From NCBI GenBank assembly GCA_036679085.1, contig JAZIGM010000057.1, positions 146,635 to 210,634 on the forward strand: a stretch of DNA of 64,000 bases, read 5' to 3'. The notes beneath the pieces are model-generated. The model was not told the origin of the DNA. It was given only the letters and a program-made list of their open reading frames with translations, and did no database searches. Shown here one piece after another: positions 3,159 to 55,179 of this stretch. A program made the position numbers and the translations under genes. Numbering within the stretch: position 1 is the first letter of the stretch; each line of letters starts with the position of its first letter. Origin of the DNA: Chloroflexota bacterium. GTDB lineage: Bacteria; Chloroflexota; Anaerolineae; Aggregatilineales; UBA3940.

Positions 3159-4490
3159 TCAGCCCGTGGAGCGGACGCGCGCTGTTGTTGTGCTGTCGCT
3201 CGCCTCCGCCAGTAACTTCATTAAGGTTTCCGCCAGCCGGGCCGCGTCGTGTCGCCACGGACGCTGCTCGTCCACCAGCGGAGCCGTTACTATTTTAGCA
3301 CCGCTTCCAACAACACCATGGTTATTTTCAGCCAAAGCTACGTAGCTAAAGTTCATATCTTCACCGGCGTCGAGGAAGCGATCGTTGGCCAGCACGAGGT
3401 CAAACAGGCCGGGGCCGACGTGCCGCTCGATGGCGCGGACGTGGTCCTCCACGCTGTAGCCGTCTGTCTCGCCCGCCTGGGTGGCGACGTTGCACACGTA
3501 CACGCGCAGCGCCCGGCTGTGGCGAACCGCCTCGCCGATGCCCTGCACCAGCAGGTTAGGCAGGATGCTGGTGTAAAGGCTCCCCGGCCCGATGACGACC
3601 AGGTCGGCGGAGAGGATAGCACGCACGGCGTCGGGGTATGCGGGGACGTTGTCGGGCTTCAGGAAGACCCGCTCGATCACGCCGTGCACCTCCGGGATGG
3701 CGGACTCGCCCTCGACGCGCCGCACGTTGTTGGTCTGCACCTCGCGCAGATCGGCCATGAGCGTCACGTCGGAGAGCGTGGAGGGCAGCACTCGCCCGCG
3801 CACGGCGAGCACGCGGCTGCTCTCGATCAGCGCCTGCTCGAAGCTGCCCGTCACCCCGCTCAGCGCGGTAATGAACAGGTTGCCGAAGCTGTGCCCCTCC
3901 AGGCCGCCCTCACCGAAACGGTACTGGAAAAGCTGCGTCATCAGGTTCTCGTCGCGGGCGAGCGCGGCGAGGTTGTTGCGGATATCGCCGGGGGGCAGCA
4001 CGCCGAGGTCGCGGCGCAGGCGTCCCGAACTGCCGCCGTCGTCGGCGACGGTCACGATGGCGGTGATGTTCGAGGTGTGCGCCGTGAGGCCGCGCAGCAG
4101 CGTCGGCAGGCCGGTTCCCCCGCCGATGGCGACGACCTTCGGCCCGCGCCCGCGCTGGCGATACTCCATCATGGCGTCCACAATGTCACGGCTGCCGATG
4201 TCCAGCGGCGTGAAGATCGCCTGGCCGATACGGGTCAGCGCCAGCCCGACCATCACCGCGCCAATCACGCCGGCAATCAGCGCGCGTATCCAGGGCGGCG
4301 AGCCGCCGAGCGTGAGGATGAATTCGACGGGCGGTATCGGGTAAGATCGGAAAAGTTGCAGCAGCATCAGGGCAAACCCCAGCGCGAGGATCGTCACGCC
4401 GAGGAAGAGCAAGAGCAGCCAGCGCTTGACACCGAGGCCCGGCGTCAGCCACTTGCGAAGGGTGTGAGTCGGCTGCGTGCGAGGTTTCAC
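3159..4490 (-). CDS. YvcK/CofD-like (UPF0052) gluconeogenesis-factor family protein with N-terminal membrane anchor
   Basis: 443 aa; VVAIGGGTGLPTLLRGL, AIVTVADDGGSSGRLRRDLGVLPPGDIRN; hydrophobic N-terminus. Confidence 0.8.
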   Translation of the reverse strand: MKPRTQPTHTLRKWLTPGLGVKRWLLLLFLGVTILALGFALMLLQLFRSYPIPPVEFILTLGGSPPWIRALIAGVIGAVMVGLALTRIGQAIFTPLDIGSRDIVDAMMEYRQRGRGPKVVAIGGGTGLPTLLRGLTAHTSNITAIVTVADDGGSSGRLRRDLGVLPPGDIRNNLAALARDENLMTQLFQYRFGEGGLEGHSFGNLFITALSGVTGSFEQALIESSRVLAVRGRVLPSTLSDVTLMADLREVQTNNVRRVEGESAIPEVHGVIERVFLKPDNVPAYPDAVRAILSADLVVIGPGSLYTSILPNLLVQGIGEAVRHSRALRVYVCNVATQAGETDGYSVEDHVRAIERHVGPGLFDLVLANDRFLDAGEDMNFSYVALAENNHGVVGSGAKIVTAPLVDEQRPWRHDAARLAETLMKLLAEASDSTTTARVRSTG

Positions 4491-6198: not shown

Positions 6199-6285
6199 GT
6201 AGGGGCGGGTCTAATGATGCGGTCGATGCGAAGCATCGCGCATCACGACCCGCCCCTACGGATAGCCGCGAAGTTTATTCGCGGC
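6199..6285. repeat. nested hairpin element (GTAGGGGCGGGTC outer stem with 35-nt insert) followed by GCCGCGAAGTTTATTCGCGGC hairpin
   Basis: Outer arms 6199-6211 and 6247-6259. Related copies at 34570, 48606, 60549; second hairpin 6265-6285 recurs at 29363, 34657, 60633. Confidence 0.8.
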
Positions 6286-8867: not shown

Positions 8868-9108
8868 TACGTGAGGGAGATTATAGCTTACGCAGGGCGA
8901 GGTGACACGGTGGGCTTCACCTGCCGAACCCCCTCCGCCGGTGCTTGCTTGCGAGCTACCACCTCCCCTTGCAAGGCGGAGGTCAGTCGAGCGGCGCCCT
9001 GGGCACAGCGGGGCTGGGTGGGGGTTCCAGTGAGAGCCAACTCAGGAGCGAGAAGGCGCAGCATGCTGTGCCCCCTACCGCATGTTACTCGTGTTATTCA
9101 AATATCCA

Positions 9109-13527: not shown

Positions 13528-16500
13528 TTAGAACCCCTCCAACCGGCTCAGGTCCACGATGCCGGAGGCCAGCGCGACGATGTGCTGCAGCAGCGCCAGC
13601 CGGTTCTGCCGGATGGCCGGATCCTCGTGCATCACCAGCACGCCGCCCTCGTCCGCCGGGGCGAAGAAGGTAGAGATAGCGGGCACCATCGGCGCGAACA
13701 CCGTCAGGAACCCGTCCACGTCCGCATCCGGACCGATGTTCCTGGCCGCCGACTGGTACGCCTTGACGAGCGCCTTCTCCGCAGGCTCGGCAAACTGCTT
13801 CGGCGCGAGTTCGTACGTCTCCTCCAGGTTGCGCGTGATGCGGGCGCAGCGTGCGTATGCGTCGAGGATGGCGGGCCAGTCCTCGCGGCGCGTCCACTCA
13901 GCGAGCTGCCCCGCGTAGCGGTAGGCCTGGTAGGGGTTGTGCCCCTGCTCGGCGATAACCGCCTCGACGACATCATGAGGGAACTCCTCGCGCAGCACGC
14001 CCGCCAACCGCCCTGCGATGAACGTCAGGACGGTTTCGCGGTGCTCCGGCGTGATGAACGTCTCGCCAAGCTCGCGCATGTAGCCCTGCGCGGCCCACTC
14101 GACCGCCTGCCGCAGGTCGAGGTCGATCCCCCGCTCGATGAGGATCTGCACGACGCCGAGCGCCGCCCGCCGCAGCCCGTACGGGTCGGCAGAGCCGGTT
14201 GGCTGGAGGCCCACCGCGAACAGCCCGACGAGGCTGTCCAGCCGGTCGGCGAGCGCGACGACCACCCCGGCAGGCGACTCCGGCAGCGCGCCGCCCGCCG
14301 AGCGCGGCATGTAGTGCTCGGCGATGGCCTGCGCCACCTCCTCCGGCTCTCCCGAACTGGCGGCGTACTCCCGCCCGACAAGCCCCTGCAGTGATGTCAT
14401 CTCGACAACGAGCGAGGTGGCGAGGTCGGCCTTTGCCAGCCGCGCCGCGCGGATCACGTGCTCCAGATCGCGGTCGGACTCGATGCCCAGCCGCGCCGCC
14501 AGCCGCGCCGCCAGCCCTTCGAGGCGCACGGCCTTGTCGTAGTACGAGCCAAGATCCTCCTGGAAGATCAGCGATTGCAGTTCGGGCAGGTAATCGGCCA
14601 GAGGCCGCTTGCGATCCTCGTTGAAGAAGTAGCGTGCATCCGCGAACCGGGCGCGGATCACGTGCTCGTTGCCCGCCCGCACCACGTCAAGGTGCTCGGC
14701 GTCGCCGTTGCGCACCGCGATGAAGTACGGCAGCAGGCGGCCATCCCCATCCACAACGGCGAAGTAGCGCTGATGCTTCTTCATGACAGTCGTCAGCACG
14801 ACATCGGGCAGCTCAAGATACTCCTCGGAGAACGAGCCGATGAGCGCCGTCGGCTGCTCGACGAGGTTGGTGACCTCCTCCAGCAGTTCGGGGTCGTCCA
14901 GCACGTAGCCGCCCACGCTCGTCGCAAGCGCCTCGACCTGCTCGCGGATCGCCTCGCGCCGCGCCTCCCGGTCGACGATCACGCCCATGGCTTCAAGGCG
15001 ACTGAAGTAGTCATCCGGGCTGCTGATCTCCACCTCCGGCGAGCGGAGCGGGCGCGGACCGCGCGTCACCCGGCCCGAGGCCACACCCGCGTACTGGAAG
15101 GGCACGACCTCGCCGCCGAGCAGCGCCACGTACCAGCGGATCGGGCGCGAGAAGGCGACGCCGGTCGCGTTCCAGCGCATCGAGCGGTCGAAGTGCAGGC
15201 CCGCCACCAGCCGGGGCAGCAGCCCGGCAAGCACCTCGGCGGCGGGGCGGCCTTCCTCGCGCACAATCGCCACCACGTACTCGCCGCCGTTGATCTCACG
15301 ACGCTCCAGGTCCTCTACGGCGATGCCCAGCCCCCGCGCGAAGCCCTCCGCCGCGCGGGTCGGGTTGCCGTCGGCGTCGTACGCGGCCTTGACGGGCGGG
15401 CCGCGACGCACGATCTCCTCGGCACGCTGGCTCGGCGCCAGCCCATCGACCAGCACAACCAGCCGGCGCGGCGTGCCCGTCACGCGGATCGACTCATAGG
15501 CCAGCCGGGCCTCGTCCAGCAGCGCCGGGACGCTCTGCTCAAGCTGCGCGATAGCCGCGTCGAGGTCGGCGGCGGGCAACTCCTCCGTGCCGATCTCCAG
15601 CAGGAAGGGCGCAGGCTCCGTCGGGTACGCGCCCACTGCGGGCGGCGGCAGTTCCGGCTGCGGGACGCTGACCGTGCCCGTCTCCGGGTCTACCTGCCAG
15701 CCATCGGGCAGCCAGGGGTACTCCATGCGCGCGCGCTGTTCGACATACGCCCCCGCCACCTGCGAGGCGAGGCGCTGCATCCGCCGGAAGTACTCGGCAC
15801 GCTCCACCACGCCGATCGCGCCGCGCGTGTCGAGCACGTTGAACAGGTGCGAGCACTTGAGCAGGTAGTCATGCGCGGGGAGCACCAGTGGCGGATCCTG
15901 TGCCAGCGCGCGCTGCGCCTCGCGCTCGTAGGTGTTGTAGACCTCGCGCAGACGGTCTACGTCCGCCACCTCAAAGTAGTAGCGGCAGTGCTCGATCTCG
16001 GACTGAAGCAGCAGGTCGCCATACCGCCAGCCCTCGCCCCACCGGATGTCCCACACCGCATCGACGCCCTGCAGCGCCAGCACGATACGCTCCAGCCCGT
16101 AGGTGATCTCGACGGAGATGGGCATCAGCGTTTGGCCGCCGGCCTGCTGGAAGTACGTGAACTGCGTGATCTCCTGCCCGTCGAGCCAGACCTCCCAGCC
16201 GAGGCCCCACGCGCCGAGCGCGGGCGACTCCCAGTTGTCCTCGACAAAGCGGATGTCGTGCTCGCGCCGGTCGATGCCCAGTGCCTCCAGCGATTGCAGG
16301 TACAGCTCCTGCGGGTTGCCGGGGTCGGGCTTGAGGATGACCTGAAACTGGTAATGCTGCTGCATGCGGTTGGGGTTGTCGCCGTAGCGCCCATCATCCG
16401 GGCGGATGGACGGCTCAACATAGGCCACGCGCCACGGCTCCGGGCCGAGCACGCGCAACGCGGTGGCGGGGTTCAGCGTGCCCGCGCCGACCTGCACGTT

Positions 16501-16587
16501 GTAGGGCTGCCAGATCACGCAGCCCTGCGCAGACCAGAACTGCTGCAACCGCATGATGACTTCTTGCAGAGATAGAGGCTCGCTCAC
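13528..16587 (-). CDS. glyQS: glycine--tRNA ligase, fused alpha and beta subunits
   Basis: Alpha-subunit N-terminus ([29 protein letters not shown]) continues into beta-subunit sequence in one ORF. I prefer GTG at 16587, preceded by GGAGGTGA, over the track start 16653. Confidence 0.93.
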
Positions 16588-16717
16588 TATCAAATCACCT
16601 CCGACGGGCGATGGATCAGATTTCGTTGTCCGGGGGCAGACGCCTCCCGGCACGCAGCCGGGCGCGCCCGTATCGTCGCCTTCGAGTTTAACGCGGAAAT
16701 TCTAACATGGCAGGGAA

Positions 16718-17140
16718 GCCGGGCAATAAATTGCCCGGCTATAAGGCGGCTGCGCCGCCGCGAAGTCCCCTATCGGGGACTTGTTTATGTTCGGAGCATC
16801 GCCTCAGAGGGCAAGAGTCCCGCAGGGACCTGGCGGGATAGCAAAGCCATCCCTTTTAGCCGGGGAATCAATTCCCCGGCTACCCTCACCCCGGGTGAGC
16901 CACCTGCGGCGCCTCGCCCTGCCCCTCTCCCGGGCGGCCACTATCGTGGCCTGGGAGAGGGGGCCAGGGGTGAGGGTTGTAACCCGCCACGGATGCAGGG
17001 ATAACGTATGTAGGGGCGGGTCTGAGACCCGCCCCTACCAAAGACGGTCCATAGCGTGAGGATAGCCGAGCATAAATCGTCCGGCGACGTGATAGCCTCG
17101 CTATCCGGGCGGCTGCGCCGCTCGCTTAATCGCCCTGCTA
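16718..17140. repeat. array of GC-rich hairpin modules (left flank of the transposase homolog; reverse orientation of the composite unit)
   Basis: gccgggcaataaattgcccggc, ggcggctgcgccgcc, gtcccctatcggggac, gggatagcaaagccatccc, ccggggaatcaattccccgg, cccctctcccgggc..tgggagagggg, gtaggggcgggtctgagacccgcccctac. Confidence 0.85.
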
Positions 17141-17159
17141 GGGCTTTGGGTACACTACT

Positions 17160-17678
17160 ATGCTAATTCCGGACAAGCCTTTAATTGCCGGGCGGGTAAT
17201 GATTACCGGGCAACCACAAAGGCGATACACCTTGGCATACTGGCGCCAATTCTTCCACATTGTGTGGGCGACGTATCGACGGCAGCCTCTTCTATCACCG
17301 GAAATCGAACCTCGCGTGCATCGAGTAATAACCGCGCTCTGCAGCGAACAGGGTGGTCAGGCATACGCTGTGAATGGAATGCCGGACCACATACATATGG
17401 TGACTACCATCCCGCCGACACTTTCCACTGCAACCTTTGTCAAGAAGCTAAAAGGGGCTTCGTCCCACTTTATCACCCACGAACTCGGTTGTCCTTTCCG
17501 CTGGGAGGCAGGGTACGGAGTCCTGACGATCAGCCAGCGGAACTTGCGACAGGCTATCGACTATGTGAATGGCCAGAAGCAGCATCATGAAGCAGGGCAA
17601 GTCTTCAAGGCTTATGAACTCTCGAGCACCAAGAATGATGGCCCGAAATCATTGAGGCTGAAACCAGCCAGCAGGTAG
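17160..17678 (+). CDS. IS200/IS605-family Y1 (HUH) transposase homolog, RAYT-like
   Basis: 172 aa; FFHIVWATYRRQPLL, HUH motif PDHIHMV, tyrosine helix AIDYVNGQKQHH; no tnpB partner. Alternative start ATG 17199, because the first ~55 nt contain hairpin-like sequence. Confidence 0.85.
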   Translation: MLIPDKPLIAGRVMITGQPQRRYTLAYWRQFFHIVWATYRRQPLLSPEIEPRVHRVITALCSEQGGQAYAVNGMPDHIHMVTTIPPTLSTATFVKKLKGASSHFITHELGCPFRWEAGYGVLTISQRNLRQAIDYVNGQKQHHEAGQVFKAYELSSTKNDGPKSLRLKPASR

Positions 17679-17689
17679 CCTTGTCAGGT

Positions 17690-17954
17690 GGAGTCCGCTT
17701 GCGGACTTCGCGGCGGCAAAGCCGCCTTGTAGCCCGGCAATTGATTGCCGGGCGGGATCTGGCAACCAAGCCACCAAGCCACCGCCCAGGAATAGAATTC
17801 CCGGGCTACAAGGGATAGCTTCGCTATCCCGCAAAGTGCCCTGACGGGCACTCCCAGCCCAAAGGGCCGGCGTCTCCCTGCGGGAGACGGAGTCCGCCTG
17901 CGGCGGACTTCGCGGCGGCGCAGCCGCCTTTTAGCCCGGCAATTGATTGCCGGC
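17690..17954. repeat. array of GC-rich hairpin modules (right flank of the transposase homolog; forward orientation)
   Basis: ggagtccgcttgcggacttc, gcggcggcaaagccgcc, gcccggcaattgattgccgggc, gggatagcttcgctatccc, gtgccctgacgggcac, gtctccctgcgggagac, ggagtccgcctgcggcggactt, gcggcggcgcagccgcc. Confidence 0.85.
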
Positions 17955-17986
17955 GCCAAATCCCCACCCACATCGCAAAATTCATG

Positions 17987-18015
17987 TTGACGCCTTACAC
18001 CACCCTTGCTATAAT
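17987..18015 (+). promoter_or_regulatory. sigma70-type promoter for tRNA-Asn: TTGACG-17-TATAAT
   Basis: TTGACG 17987-17992, 17-nt spacer, TATAAT 18010-18015; the tRNA starts 13 nt downstream. Confidence 0.6.
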
Positions 18016-29362: not shown

Positions 29363-29392
29363 GGAGCCGCGAAGTTTATTCGCGGCGTTTTT
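29363..29392 (+). terminator. repeat-borne intrinsic-terminator-like hairpin GGAGCCGCGAAGTTTATTCGCGGC + TTTTT
   Basis: Hairpin 29363-29386, then g-ttttt; the same element with a T-run is at 34657-34688. Confidence 0.55.
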
Positions 29393-43710: not shown

Positions 43711-43721
43711 GGGCGCCCCCT

Positions 43722-43946
43722 GCCCGGCAATGAATTGCCGGGCTATGTGTAATTGTCCGCTCCGCGGACAGAGGCGCCGGGCAATAAATTGCCCGACTAA
43801 AAAGGGATTGCACCGCAATCCCGCGAAGTGCCCTATCGGGCACTCCCGGCCCGAAGGGCCGGCGCCCCCACAGGGGGCGGAGTCCTCCTGCGGAGGACTT
43901 GGCGGTGGCGCAGCCACCTTGTAGCCCGGGAATTCCATTCCCGGGC
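43722..43946. repeat. multi-hairpin composite repeat (forward orientation)
   Basis: Same module order as 54794-54969: A gcccggcaatgaattgccgggc ... B gggattgcaccgcaatccc, C gtgccctatcgggcac, D, E gcccccacagggggc, F ggagtcctcctgcggaggactt, G ggcggtggcgcagccacc, A gcccgggaattccattcccgggc. Confidence 0.85.
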
Positions 43947-44037
43947 GGTGAGGGGCAACAATGCCAGCCTCCCCACGCCACGCTATAATTCAGATGTTCG
44001 CTCAGGAAACGGAAGCGTTGAAAAAGAGGTTCCGCGC

Positions 44038-54473: not shown

Positions 54474-54793
54474 CTCTCCTCGCTATCCGTTCTGTGAGCA
54501 CTCATTCGCTCGAACAACTGTTTTAGGGTTAAACTATCAGATGCAGCTACACCGATGGCGTGACAATCTGCAGTGAGTTTTGAGGTTAAGGGGCCACAAT
54601 GATGGTCAGCGTGCCCGGGCTGCCCAAGGTTCTCTTAAAGTATAGCGAATTGGTCCAGATTCTTGTAGTTGAGAGGTGGTGGGGCTGGGGAACCCCTCCG
54701 AACGGCCCAAAGGGTCGTCCACCTCTTCTAAAAGGGGGCGTGGAGAACGGCGTTGTCCTTTGTCGTGTCACCTGATCGCCCCCTAACAGCCCC

Positions 54794-55138
54794 GCCGGGG
54801 AATGGAATTCCCCGGCTAAAAGGGATAGCGGAGCTATCCCGCGAAGTGCCCTGACGGGCACTCCCGTCCCCTCCGGGGACGGCGCCCCCATAGGGGGTGG
54901 GAGTCCGTCGCAGACGGACTTGGCGGCGGCGCCAGCCGCCTGCCCGGCAATTTATTGCCGGGCGTCCTCGCCGGGGAATGAAGTTCCCCGGCTAAAAGGG
55001 ATAGCGGAGCTATCCCGCGAAGTGCCCTGACGGGCACTCCCGTCCCCTCCGGGGACGGCGCCCCCAAGGGGGCGGGAGTCCGTCGCAGACGGACTTGGCG
55101 GCGGCGCCAGCCGCCTGCCCGGCAATTCATTGCCGGGC
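54794..55138. repeat. tandem duplication (about 97% identity) of a 176-bp unit made of eight different hairpins
   Basis: Unit 1 is 54794-54969; unit 2 is 54970-55138. They differ by only 4 substitutions and 1 indel by my alignment. Confidence 0.9.
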
Positions 55139-55179
55139 AGCAGGGGCAGAATTGATTACGACTCACCTGGAGCAACGCC

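Follow-up and report, generated by a model that had tools for sequence, protein, structure and literature searches.

Repetitive extragenic palindromic (REP) sequences and their REP-associated tyrosine transposases (RAYTs) are the textbook case of a domesticated transposase that maintains miniature repeats. To our knowledge, nearly all described systems of this kind have class-2 enzymes and come from Proteobacteria and a few other groups. The RAYT (or TnpA-REP) enzymes and the REP, REPIN and REPtron arrangements that accompany them are said to have been described by Nunvar in 2010, Bertels and Rainey in 2011, Ton-Hoang in 2012 and Messing in 2012. Here we describe a gene for a Y1 HUH tyrosine enzyme and the multi-hairpin repeat units that surround it in a 64,000-nucleotide stretch (66% GC) of a Chloroflexota bacterium (assembly GCA_036679085.1, contig JAZIGM010000057.1, positions 146,635 to 210,634), hereafter the window. 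We consider it probable that the locus is REPtron-like, with an IS200-related enzyme in the place of a classical RAYT.

A 2018 analysis of Y1 enzymes (Quentin, Siguier, Chandler & Fichant, BMC Genomics 19:475; PMC6006769) distinguished classes 1, 2 and 3, where class 2 comprises the RAYTs, with the motif Y---NP, and class 1 comprises the IS200 transposases (subclass 1.1) and a new low-copy group (subclass 1.2). Subclass 1.2 was defined by Y---Q--HH, DH[IV]H and WQ motifs, a shorter core, a median length of 148 aa and a conserved tail, and was listed as 'REP: no' and without IS200-type end structures, mostly in Cyanobacteria and Bacteroidetes (PMC6006769). In a full-text search of one library of papers, no later work on this subclass came up. 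The general phenomenon is not new, because Chloroflexi have already been seen to carry GTAG-tagged palindromes and there are earlier descriptions of tandem REP dimers with flanking segments (PMC3733652). New here are the enzyme subclass, an eight-hairpin pseudo-palindromic unit and the variable, often direct, arrangement of units around the gene.

A subclass 1.2 gene embedded in multi-hairpin units

An earlier note, made from the letters of the window, had pointed to an open reading frame (ORF) at 17160..17678 with HUH and tyrosine motifs of the IS200/IS605 TnpA type, and this ORF does match Pfam Y1_Tnp (PF01797, E 1.3e-22; score 80.6 bits, cutoff 23). The gene most likely starts further in, at TTG 17232, and encodes 148 aa, because an identical NCBI protein is annotated in this way and all homologs begin with M(A/P)YWRQ; the first 24 codons of the longer ORF are hairpin modules. 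The HUH motif reads DHIH (residues 52-55), and the catalytic tyrosine lies in YVNGQKQHH (residues 111-119). The best match in the PDB is ISDra2 TnpA (2XM3, E 8e-11), in which the HUH motif and Y132 align with DHIH and Y111. The closest solved structures are the insertion sequence (IS) transposases of ISDra2, IS608 and Sulfolobus, all with aligned catalytic residues, and E. coli TnpA-REP is absent among the PDB matches at E<1. The protein has the look of an active Y1 HUH single-strand DNA transesterase. Comparison with relatives gave dN/dS values of 0.04-0.12, with synonymous sites close to saturation; the gene is intact and under purifying selection.

Its motifs place the protein in TnpAY1 subclass 1.2. 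The signature Y---Q--HH (or --RH for some) recurs in nearly all of its top 150 representatives, and the window protein has Y---Q--HH too, with WE where at least 90% of 30 aligned homologs have WQ. Its shorter core is apparent as a 7-residue gap relative to ISDra2 TnpA between the HUH and tyrosine regions, and the ~30-aa C-terminal tail, HH..G.....LE, is conserved. The protein passes the NCBIfam IS200 equivalog model (NF033573, 74.3 bits against a cutoff of 55) and misses the RAYT model REP_Tyr_transpos (NF047646, 26.2 bits against a cutoff of 80). The suggestion of a RAYT-type enzyme in the earlier note was therefore partly right: this is a solitary IS200-like Y1 HUH gene that lacks the multicopy signature of IS200, but the score of 26 bits against 80 and a Y---Q--HH motif in place of Y---NP place it outside the class-2 RAYTs of Proteobacteria.

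Also as previously noted, the gene stands alone, since tblastn of the window and of every fetched locus gave no second copy, and none of the neighbouring ORFs is a tnpB. The identical 148-aa protein is annotated in two NCBI metagenome-assembled genomes (MAGs), and a shorter call of the gene occurs on 43 contigs from many samples, a count that is uninformative on copies per genome. The gene is probably single copy, which for the genome as a whole we infer. A profile search returned more than 7,000 clusters at 90% identity (E<=1e-15), most of them on 1-4 contigs, and subclass 1.2 clusters occur in Chloroflexota, Bacteroidota, Chlamydiota, Deltaproteobacteria and other groups. Many of the best matches (P0009, P0010, P0013, P0015, P0017 and others) are proteins of 270-300 aa with two tandem Y1_Tnp domains (Pfam). 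In some, such as P0009 and P0010, the HUH motif is kept in just one of these, and the arrangement suggests that tandem-domain proteins may be single-chain pseudo-dimers with one complete composite active site.

Unit copies were located with an nhmmer unit profile over the window, and individual modules with mismatch-tolerant scans (Table 1). In the aligned copies, the unit is 175-193 nt long and consists of eight local hairpins in the fixed order B-C-D-E-E2-F-G-A. Hairpin A is GCCCGGCAAT-nn-ATTGCCGGGC with (G/T/A)TAG directly 5' of it, while hairpin B is an A-type hairpin followed by CTA, in other words A in the opposite orientation. In hairpins of the A/B type, the foot is GC-rich and the top reads AAT-loop-ATT. 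A TAG directly precedes the stem (CTA when read on the opposite strand), and in most of these hairpins the TAG foot is GTAG, TTAG, ATAG or CTAG. The reverse complement of the half B-C-D-E aligns with E2-F-G-A at ~60% identity, with a score of 63 against 30 +/- 6 for shuffled sequences (z ~5.7). Because B with its CTA mirrors A with its TAG and the halves align as reverse complements, the unit is, at sequence level, a pseudo-palindrome: an inverted doublet of a four-hairpin module that resembles a tail-to-tail REP dimer with a structured spacer.

The description of both flanks as trains of GC-rich hairpins was borne out by folding them as single-stranded DNA, which gave -91.4 kcal/mol for the right flank (17684-17957, z -8.5) and -152.8 kcal/mol for the left (16710-17232, z -9.8), neither equalled by any shuffle. 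Perfect hairpins (stem >=7 bp) are enriched ~34-fold in four short regions, where ~1.16 kb of array sequence holds 33 of the 85 in the window. On the right, the order read in the earlier note (F-G-TTGTA-A, then B-C-D-...-F-G-A) was recovered, with two extra hairpins, E and E2, between D and F. What had been called an ordered train of 7-8 different hairpins is better described as one pseudo-palindromic unit repeated in tandem, an architecture nearer to that of REPIN or BIME-2 than the earlier note had supposed. The left flank had been read as an inverted array. Its outer end is indeed inverted, as 16718-16776 reverse complements 17695-17753 (59 nt, 85%) and 17905-17951 (47 nt, 94%), but only the outermost 165 nt (16718-16882) form an inverted unit, while the rest comprises another long palindrome, a GTAG double-foot REP and degenerate forward modules. 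The inverted repeats I1 and I2 pair this outer unit with the right array. Over the whole window, the unit profile detected five full units and a single half unit, which lies on the right and begins 7 nt past the Y1 stop codon.

The same modules had been counted at 12 or more other intergenic sites. This number fell to two, as the profile and a window scan for modules A, B, C, D and F (<=3 mismatches) found them away from the gene only at 43.72-43.95 kb and 54.79-55.14 kb; the remaining intergenic hairpins of the window belong to unrelated families, among them a terminator-like hairpin and a double-foot GTAG palindrome. Metagenome contigs L052/L055, L053 and L056 carry additional unit copies between unrelated flanks, which adds at least three loci beyond the window. 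Short-read contigs L061, L062 and L064 stop inside or at the edge of units and contigs L058-L060 have their first letters at the A hairpin that precedes the gene, as expected of multicopy sequence. The unit repeats fragment assemblies of this lineage more generally, with several Logan contigs that stop in units and an N run (8902-9000) inside the right-hand array of the NCBI MAG contig L001.

The unit at the lgt locus (43775..43948) is kept at the orthologous site in L063 (~85% identity), where two adjacent E2 base pairs are changed on both sides and the F loop is flipped. Double compensatory changes are seen in orthologous copies, such as cgccccc/gggggcg to catcccc/ggggatg. The half unit beside it (43721-43771) is polymorphic, being present in the window and in L061/L062 and absent at the orthologous L063 site. 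Over 14 copies, the stems are 90-97% Watson-Crick paired despite differing arms, compared with 53-75% for D, E, E2 and F when arms are permuted. This test used per-hairpin arm tables with arm-shuffle controls, a MAFFT alignment having put several hairpins out of register, and is read qualitatively as some compensatory counts are inflated by stem-length shifts. G.T and A.C stem mismatches showed no strand bias and therefore give no sign of RNA-only selection. At gathering thresholds, an Rfam search gave the two tRNAs as its only hits, an E-value search of the locus returned nothing near any gathering score, and no known RNA family accounts for the arrays. A terminator model found hairpins that lack T-runs and one weak terminator-like site, in the left flank.

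Intergenic units at orthologous sites and compensatory stem evolution suggest a function at the level of the host, and thereby bring in a second explanation, namely that the arrays are independent of the enzyme. They would then be host structural or regulatory elements (candidates are mRNA 3'-end stabilisers, protein-binding sites and supercoiling sites) or recombination and slippage repeats, with the Y1 gene inserted or retained there. Many ISs target REPs (PMC3733652), tandem copy number varies as slippage predicts, and no cleavage or target motif is definable. We nevertheless consider this quite unlikely. No separate IS ends lie between the units and the ORF, whose immediate flanks are unit modules, and the absence of strand bias in the stems, of any Rfam family and of T-runs after the hairpins also argues against it. 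The association moreover recurs with different lineage-specific repeats in four phyla, as described below, which fits coevolving pairs of enzyme and substrate and not insertion into existing host repeats.

Pairing of gene and repeats in relatives

The MAG contigs L001 and L002, which encode the Y1 protein at 99-100% identity, match the window collinearly (99.3-99.9% identity) from 17181 towards the right. On the left side of the gene they carry pyrD and then directly forward tandem units, four in L001 and one in L002, and synteny breaks inside the hairpin A beside the gene (window 17181). In L003 (76% protein identity, ~85% genome identity), one unit lies forward on the left and another reverse on the right. 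The earlier picture of a gene between inverted arrays therefore applies to the window genome but not to these relatives: the inverted bracket is specific to the former, because L001 and L002 have forward units on both sides. The L003 gene sits between genes found in the window at 11.4 kb and 51.66 kb, 40 kb from each other and in inverted arrangement, and the difference is therefore a rearrangement junction and not a simple insertion. An A-type hairpin also lies upstream of the gene in L001, L002, L003 and L058-L060, just upstream of the Y1 start in the latter three (66% and 71% identity), and L058 and L059 have an F-like hairpin ~70 nt downstream of the Y1 stop. Units or A hairpins thus adjoin the gene in the window, in L001 and L002, at a different locus in L003 and in L058-L060. 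From these comparisons, the arrays may be rearrangement hot spots.

Seven more distant subclass 1.2 genes (34-56% identity), from four phyla, each have their own flanking hairpin repeats. On metagenome contigs, L065 (56%) has 150-nt direct repeats (95%) of 86-nt hairpin modules on both sides, L066 (51%) a 55-nt inverted doublet (96%) upstream and L071 (40%) 119-nt four-hairpin tandem units on both sides. L067 (Chloroflexi, 42%) has 126-nt direct repeats (90%), L057 (Chlamydiales, 40%) direct repeats of 137 nt (99%) and 107 nt (93%) with 78-nt inverted repeats, and L070 (Deltaproteobacteria, 38%) a similar hairpin, one per side. By eye, and not by a statistical comparison, a hairpin of the type CCGG..AAT-loop-ATT..CCGG-CT(A) is common to several of these loci.

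The seventh gene, L072 (34%), is the only subclass 1.2 gene on a closed 632-kb plasmid of Persicobacter sp. JZB09 (CP012861); a search of a plasmid collection otherwise returned mostly classical IS200 proteins that are <=35% identical, leaving this plasmid as the sole informative match. The gene lies exactly midway in a pseudo-palindromic element of ~250 nt, each half of which has three hairpins. Seven full gene-less copies were found, six less than 8 kb from the gene and one at 475 kb, with partial copies at 477 and 507 kb. The 475-kb copy alone counts as independent dispersal, the fragments at 477 and 507 kb being excluded. The region at 277-294 kb of the unannotated record CP012861.1, which holds the gene and the six nearby elements, is segmentally duplicated (repeats <=1.1 kb, 77-95% identity), and its flanks hint at repeated toxin-cassette-like (YD/Rhs-type) coding segments.

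A gene inside an element that also has gene-less copies is the classic pattern of autonomous and non-autonomous transposons, and the same could be proposed for the window: an ordinary autonomous IS200-type IS, with A-type hairpins as direct left and right ends (LE and RE) and the 175-nt units as derivatives of the MITE (miniature inverted-repeat transposable element) or PATE (palindrome-associated transposable element) kind, whose gene looks single copy because MAGs collapse repeats. The match to the IS200 equivalog model and the IS transposases among the closest structures are in keeping with this, as are flanking repeats that are direct in most relatives, like IS200/IS605 ends, and the different loci of the gene in the window, L003 and L058. 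It is nonetheless unlikely in our judgement. Two NCBI MAG contigs with the identical protein have the same right flank as the window, most homolog clusters lie on 1-4 contigs, and the closed Persicobacter plasmid has a single copy; the different position in L003 reflects the rearrangement junction described above. Low copy number and low intragenomic identity are reported for the subclass (PMC6006769), and purifying selection is strong across 66-76% divergent copies.

We therefore return to the REPtron-like interpretation, in which the gene encodes the cognate enzyme of the repeats, as the earlier note had supposed. Its strongest support is that the pairing of gene and repeat recurs in every relative examined; for the catalytic link, we infer by analogy that the enzyme would bind and cleave A/B-type hairpins, which close each end of the unit and are its presumed substrates. 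In a mechanism modelled on IS608/ISDra2 TnpA and E. coli TnpA-REP, a dimeric enzyme would bind hairpins extruded in single-stranded DNA, such as the lagging-strand template, cut near the TAG foot via a 5'-phosphotyrosine intermediate and then rejoin the ends. Such cutting and rejoining could move or copy half units and whole units, and insertion beside an existing hairpin, together with slippage or unequal exchange, could create tandem arrays. These would then act as recombination substrates, which would explain the synteny breaks at arrays.

Several points weigh against this interpretation. In the window, the unit was found at just two sites away from the gene, and 'one gene, many repeats' rests on 64 kb and scattered contigs. 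The orientation of units relative to the gene varies, no target or cleavage site could be defined from the compared loci, and no excision or insertion junction was captured among them. Differences in tandem copy number may reflect slippage or MAG assembly and not transposition, and units at orthologous sites across ~85% average nucleotide identity imply low mobility. Among the distant loci, profile similarity of their hairpins to the A/B hairpin is weak (E about 0.2), and the six nearby Persicobacter copies lie inside larger segmental duplications, so they need not be independent insertions. Finally, the 2018 classification listed no REPs for subclass 1.2, which is a descriptive trait of its sample and not a defining one.

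Feature coordinates and other repeats in the window

Table 1. Hairpin units, related repeats and the Y1 gene in the window (positions are those of the 64,000-nucleotide stretch)
Feature	Position	Strand	Details
Full unit, reverse	16718..16882	-	Minus-strand order B-C-(D/E-like)-F-G-A; nhmmer 83 bits, E 1.9e-24
Long imperfect palindrome of another family	16882..16977		accctcacccc...ggggtgagggt with inner cccctctccc/gggagagggg stem; inverted repeats I16, I17; fold
Double-foot GTAG palindrome	17010..17038		GTAGGGGCGGGTC-TGA-GACCCGCCCCTAC; second REP-like family, outside the unit
Degenerate forward modules	17060..17193	+	C-like 17088-17106, G-like 17108-17121, A right arm 17181-17193
A-like small hairpin	17194..17212	+	gggtaat-g-attaccggg; ~20 nt 5' of the TTG start
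Y1 HUH tyrosine enzyme gene, TnpAY1 subclass 1.2 by motifs	17232..17678	+	148 aa, most likely TTG start
Half unit F'-G-TTGTAG-A	17685..17755	+	nhmmer profile positions 105-178, 52 bits
Full unit B-C-D-E-E2-F-G-A	17783..17953	+	nhmmer 164 bits; preceded by spacer gggatctggcaaccaagccaccaagccaccg (17756-17782)
Predicted tRNA-Asn promoter	17987-18015		Promoter scan; 3' of the right-hand full unit
Solitary A hairpin with F-like hairpin X, read as a reverse half unit	43721..43771	-	Profile match 43721-43750
Full unit	43775..43948	+	Between lgt and the next gene; nhmmer 159 bits
Two tandem full units	54793-54965 and 54968-55139	+	95% identical; divergent intergenic region

The Y1 gene is flanked by glyQS on the minus strand and by tRNA-Asn and a deaminase gene on the plus strand. 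The left neighbour (13528-16653, minus strand) appears to encode a fused alpha-beta glycyl-tRNA synthetase (glyQS) of ~1000 aa, a name given from its translation alone, without a family-library scan; the ORF as listed probably starts too far upstream, with a likely start near MRLQQFW. A 15-nt imperfect inverted repeat around the ORF (17198-17212 / 17639-17653) was set aside as within chance, given 40 such pairs in the region.

Other hairpin families share the intergenic regions. The double-foot palindrome has at least seven copies in the window (7143, 17010, 29424, 34575, 48607, 60551 and 62668), with a loop of either 3 nt or a ~35-nt insert that contains an inner hairpin, gtgatgcgcgatgctccgcatcgaccgcatca. 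Quentin et al. link this REP type to subclass 2.4 RAYTs (PMC6006769), and no gene of that subclass was found in the window. A second hairpin, ggagccgcgaa-GTTTA-ttcgcggc(tcc), is repeated at 6262, 21317, 22546, 29363, 34657, 60633 and 62606. It is terminator-like, with a T-run after the copies at 29363 and 34657, and adjoins the GTAG palindrome family at 29.4, 34.6, 60.6 and 62.6 kb. The accctcacccc...ggggtgagggt and cccctctccc...gggagagggg families recur beside units, at 16882-16977 in the window and in L055 (~4165-4215), and palindromes of the 16882..16977 type adjoin units in L055/L052. The cccctctccc...gggagagggg family is also dispersed in the unrelated L065 genome (7114, 8076, 12652, 13569 and 13664).

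A scan for the D module pattern in a genome collection without the species of the window gave single chance matches and an unrelated element in the Chthonomonas sp. MAG LaPlata-b_bin-0775 (Armatimonadota; L010, L011, L021, L050 and L051). In this MAG, a composite element of its own occurs both dispersed and in tandem and shows long-range terminal pairing; its inner hairpins resemble modules D (gaagtgcccNNNNgggcactcc) and F (gagtcgccgaagggcgactt) of the unit described here. The fetched flanks of the element hold no Y1 gene.

Relation to known systems

A broader reading, which we advance tentatively and as a possibility somewhat less likely to be true than false, is that IS200 TnpA gave rise directly, and independently of the class-2 RAYTs, to a second line of domesticated REP-type enzymes that has been overlooked, namely subclass 1.2 as a whole. 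Each gene would be embedded in, and would maintain, lineage-specific composite multi-hairpin units of pseudo-palindromic form, with a shared CCGG-AAT/ATT-CCGG hairpin, tandem arrays and rearrangement breakpoints as recurring features. If subclass 1.2 does share the organisation of enzyme and repeats, insertion sequences would have given rise to REP-type systems along a second, independent route, and the range of these systems would grow to include Chloroflexota and other phyla that have been little studied. The TAG-footed A/B hairpin would then also be a clear predicted substrate for the thousands of proteins that are annotated as 'IS200/IS605 family transposase' and are otherwise uncharacterised. 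The eight-hairpin unit with its compensatory stems is a test case for selection at the level of DNA structure, and its arrays coincide with synteny breaks and MAG assembly breaks.

Like the RAYT, REPIN and REPtron systems, the locus has a solitary Y1 HUH gene flanked by palindromic repeats that are also scattered between other genes, a (G/T/A)TAG foot 5' of a GC-rich hairpin, a unit that is an inverted doublet, and conservation at orthologous sites. It differs in its enzyme, an IS200-like class 1 protein (Y---Q--HH, where class 2 has Y---NP) that scores below the cutoff of the NCBIfam RAYT model, and in the orientation of the flanks, which is variable and often direct. The unit is also far larger, with eight distinct hairpins in 175-193 nt compared with a 20-40-nt REP or a simple doublet, and its GTAG foot is degenerate, reduced to NTAG.

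Among IS200/IS605 elements and their PATE or MITE derivatives (e.g. Nezha), the TnpA proteins of ISDra2 and IS608 are the closest relatives of the enzyme, hairpins are likewise found on both sides, and gene-less copies can carry both ends, as in Persicobacter. Unlike these elements, the locus has no multicopy identical gene, no tnpB and no defined LE and RE with a target tetranucleotide, and its flanks are whole repeat units and tandem arrays. The left flank differs among the near-identical strains of the window, L001 and L002, and no constant ends or target were definable. The E. coli BIME-2 (bacterial interspersed mosaic element; tandem Y-s-Z2-l REP pairs) provides another parallel, being a head-to-tail tandem unit of two opposed REP-like hairpins with conserved motifs in its spacers and a copy number that varies between strains. 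In the window unit, however, the spacers are six further stable hairpins, and phylum and enzyme class are different.

Compared with the published description of its own subclass, the enzyme agrees in DH[IV]H, in a W followed by Q or E, in YVNGQKQHH, and in the short core, the length of ~148 aa, the ~30-aa tail and the lack of tnpB. Where the two part is in the repeats: subclass 1.2 was published as REP-less, whereas the window gene and the seven other members described here are flanked by repeated hairpins, some of which are also found away from the gene.

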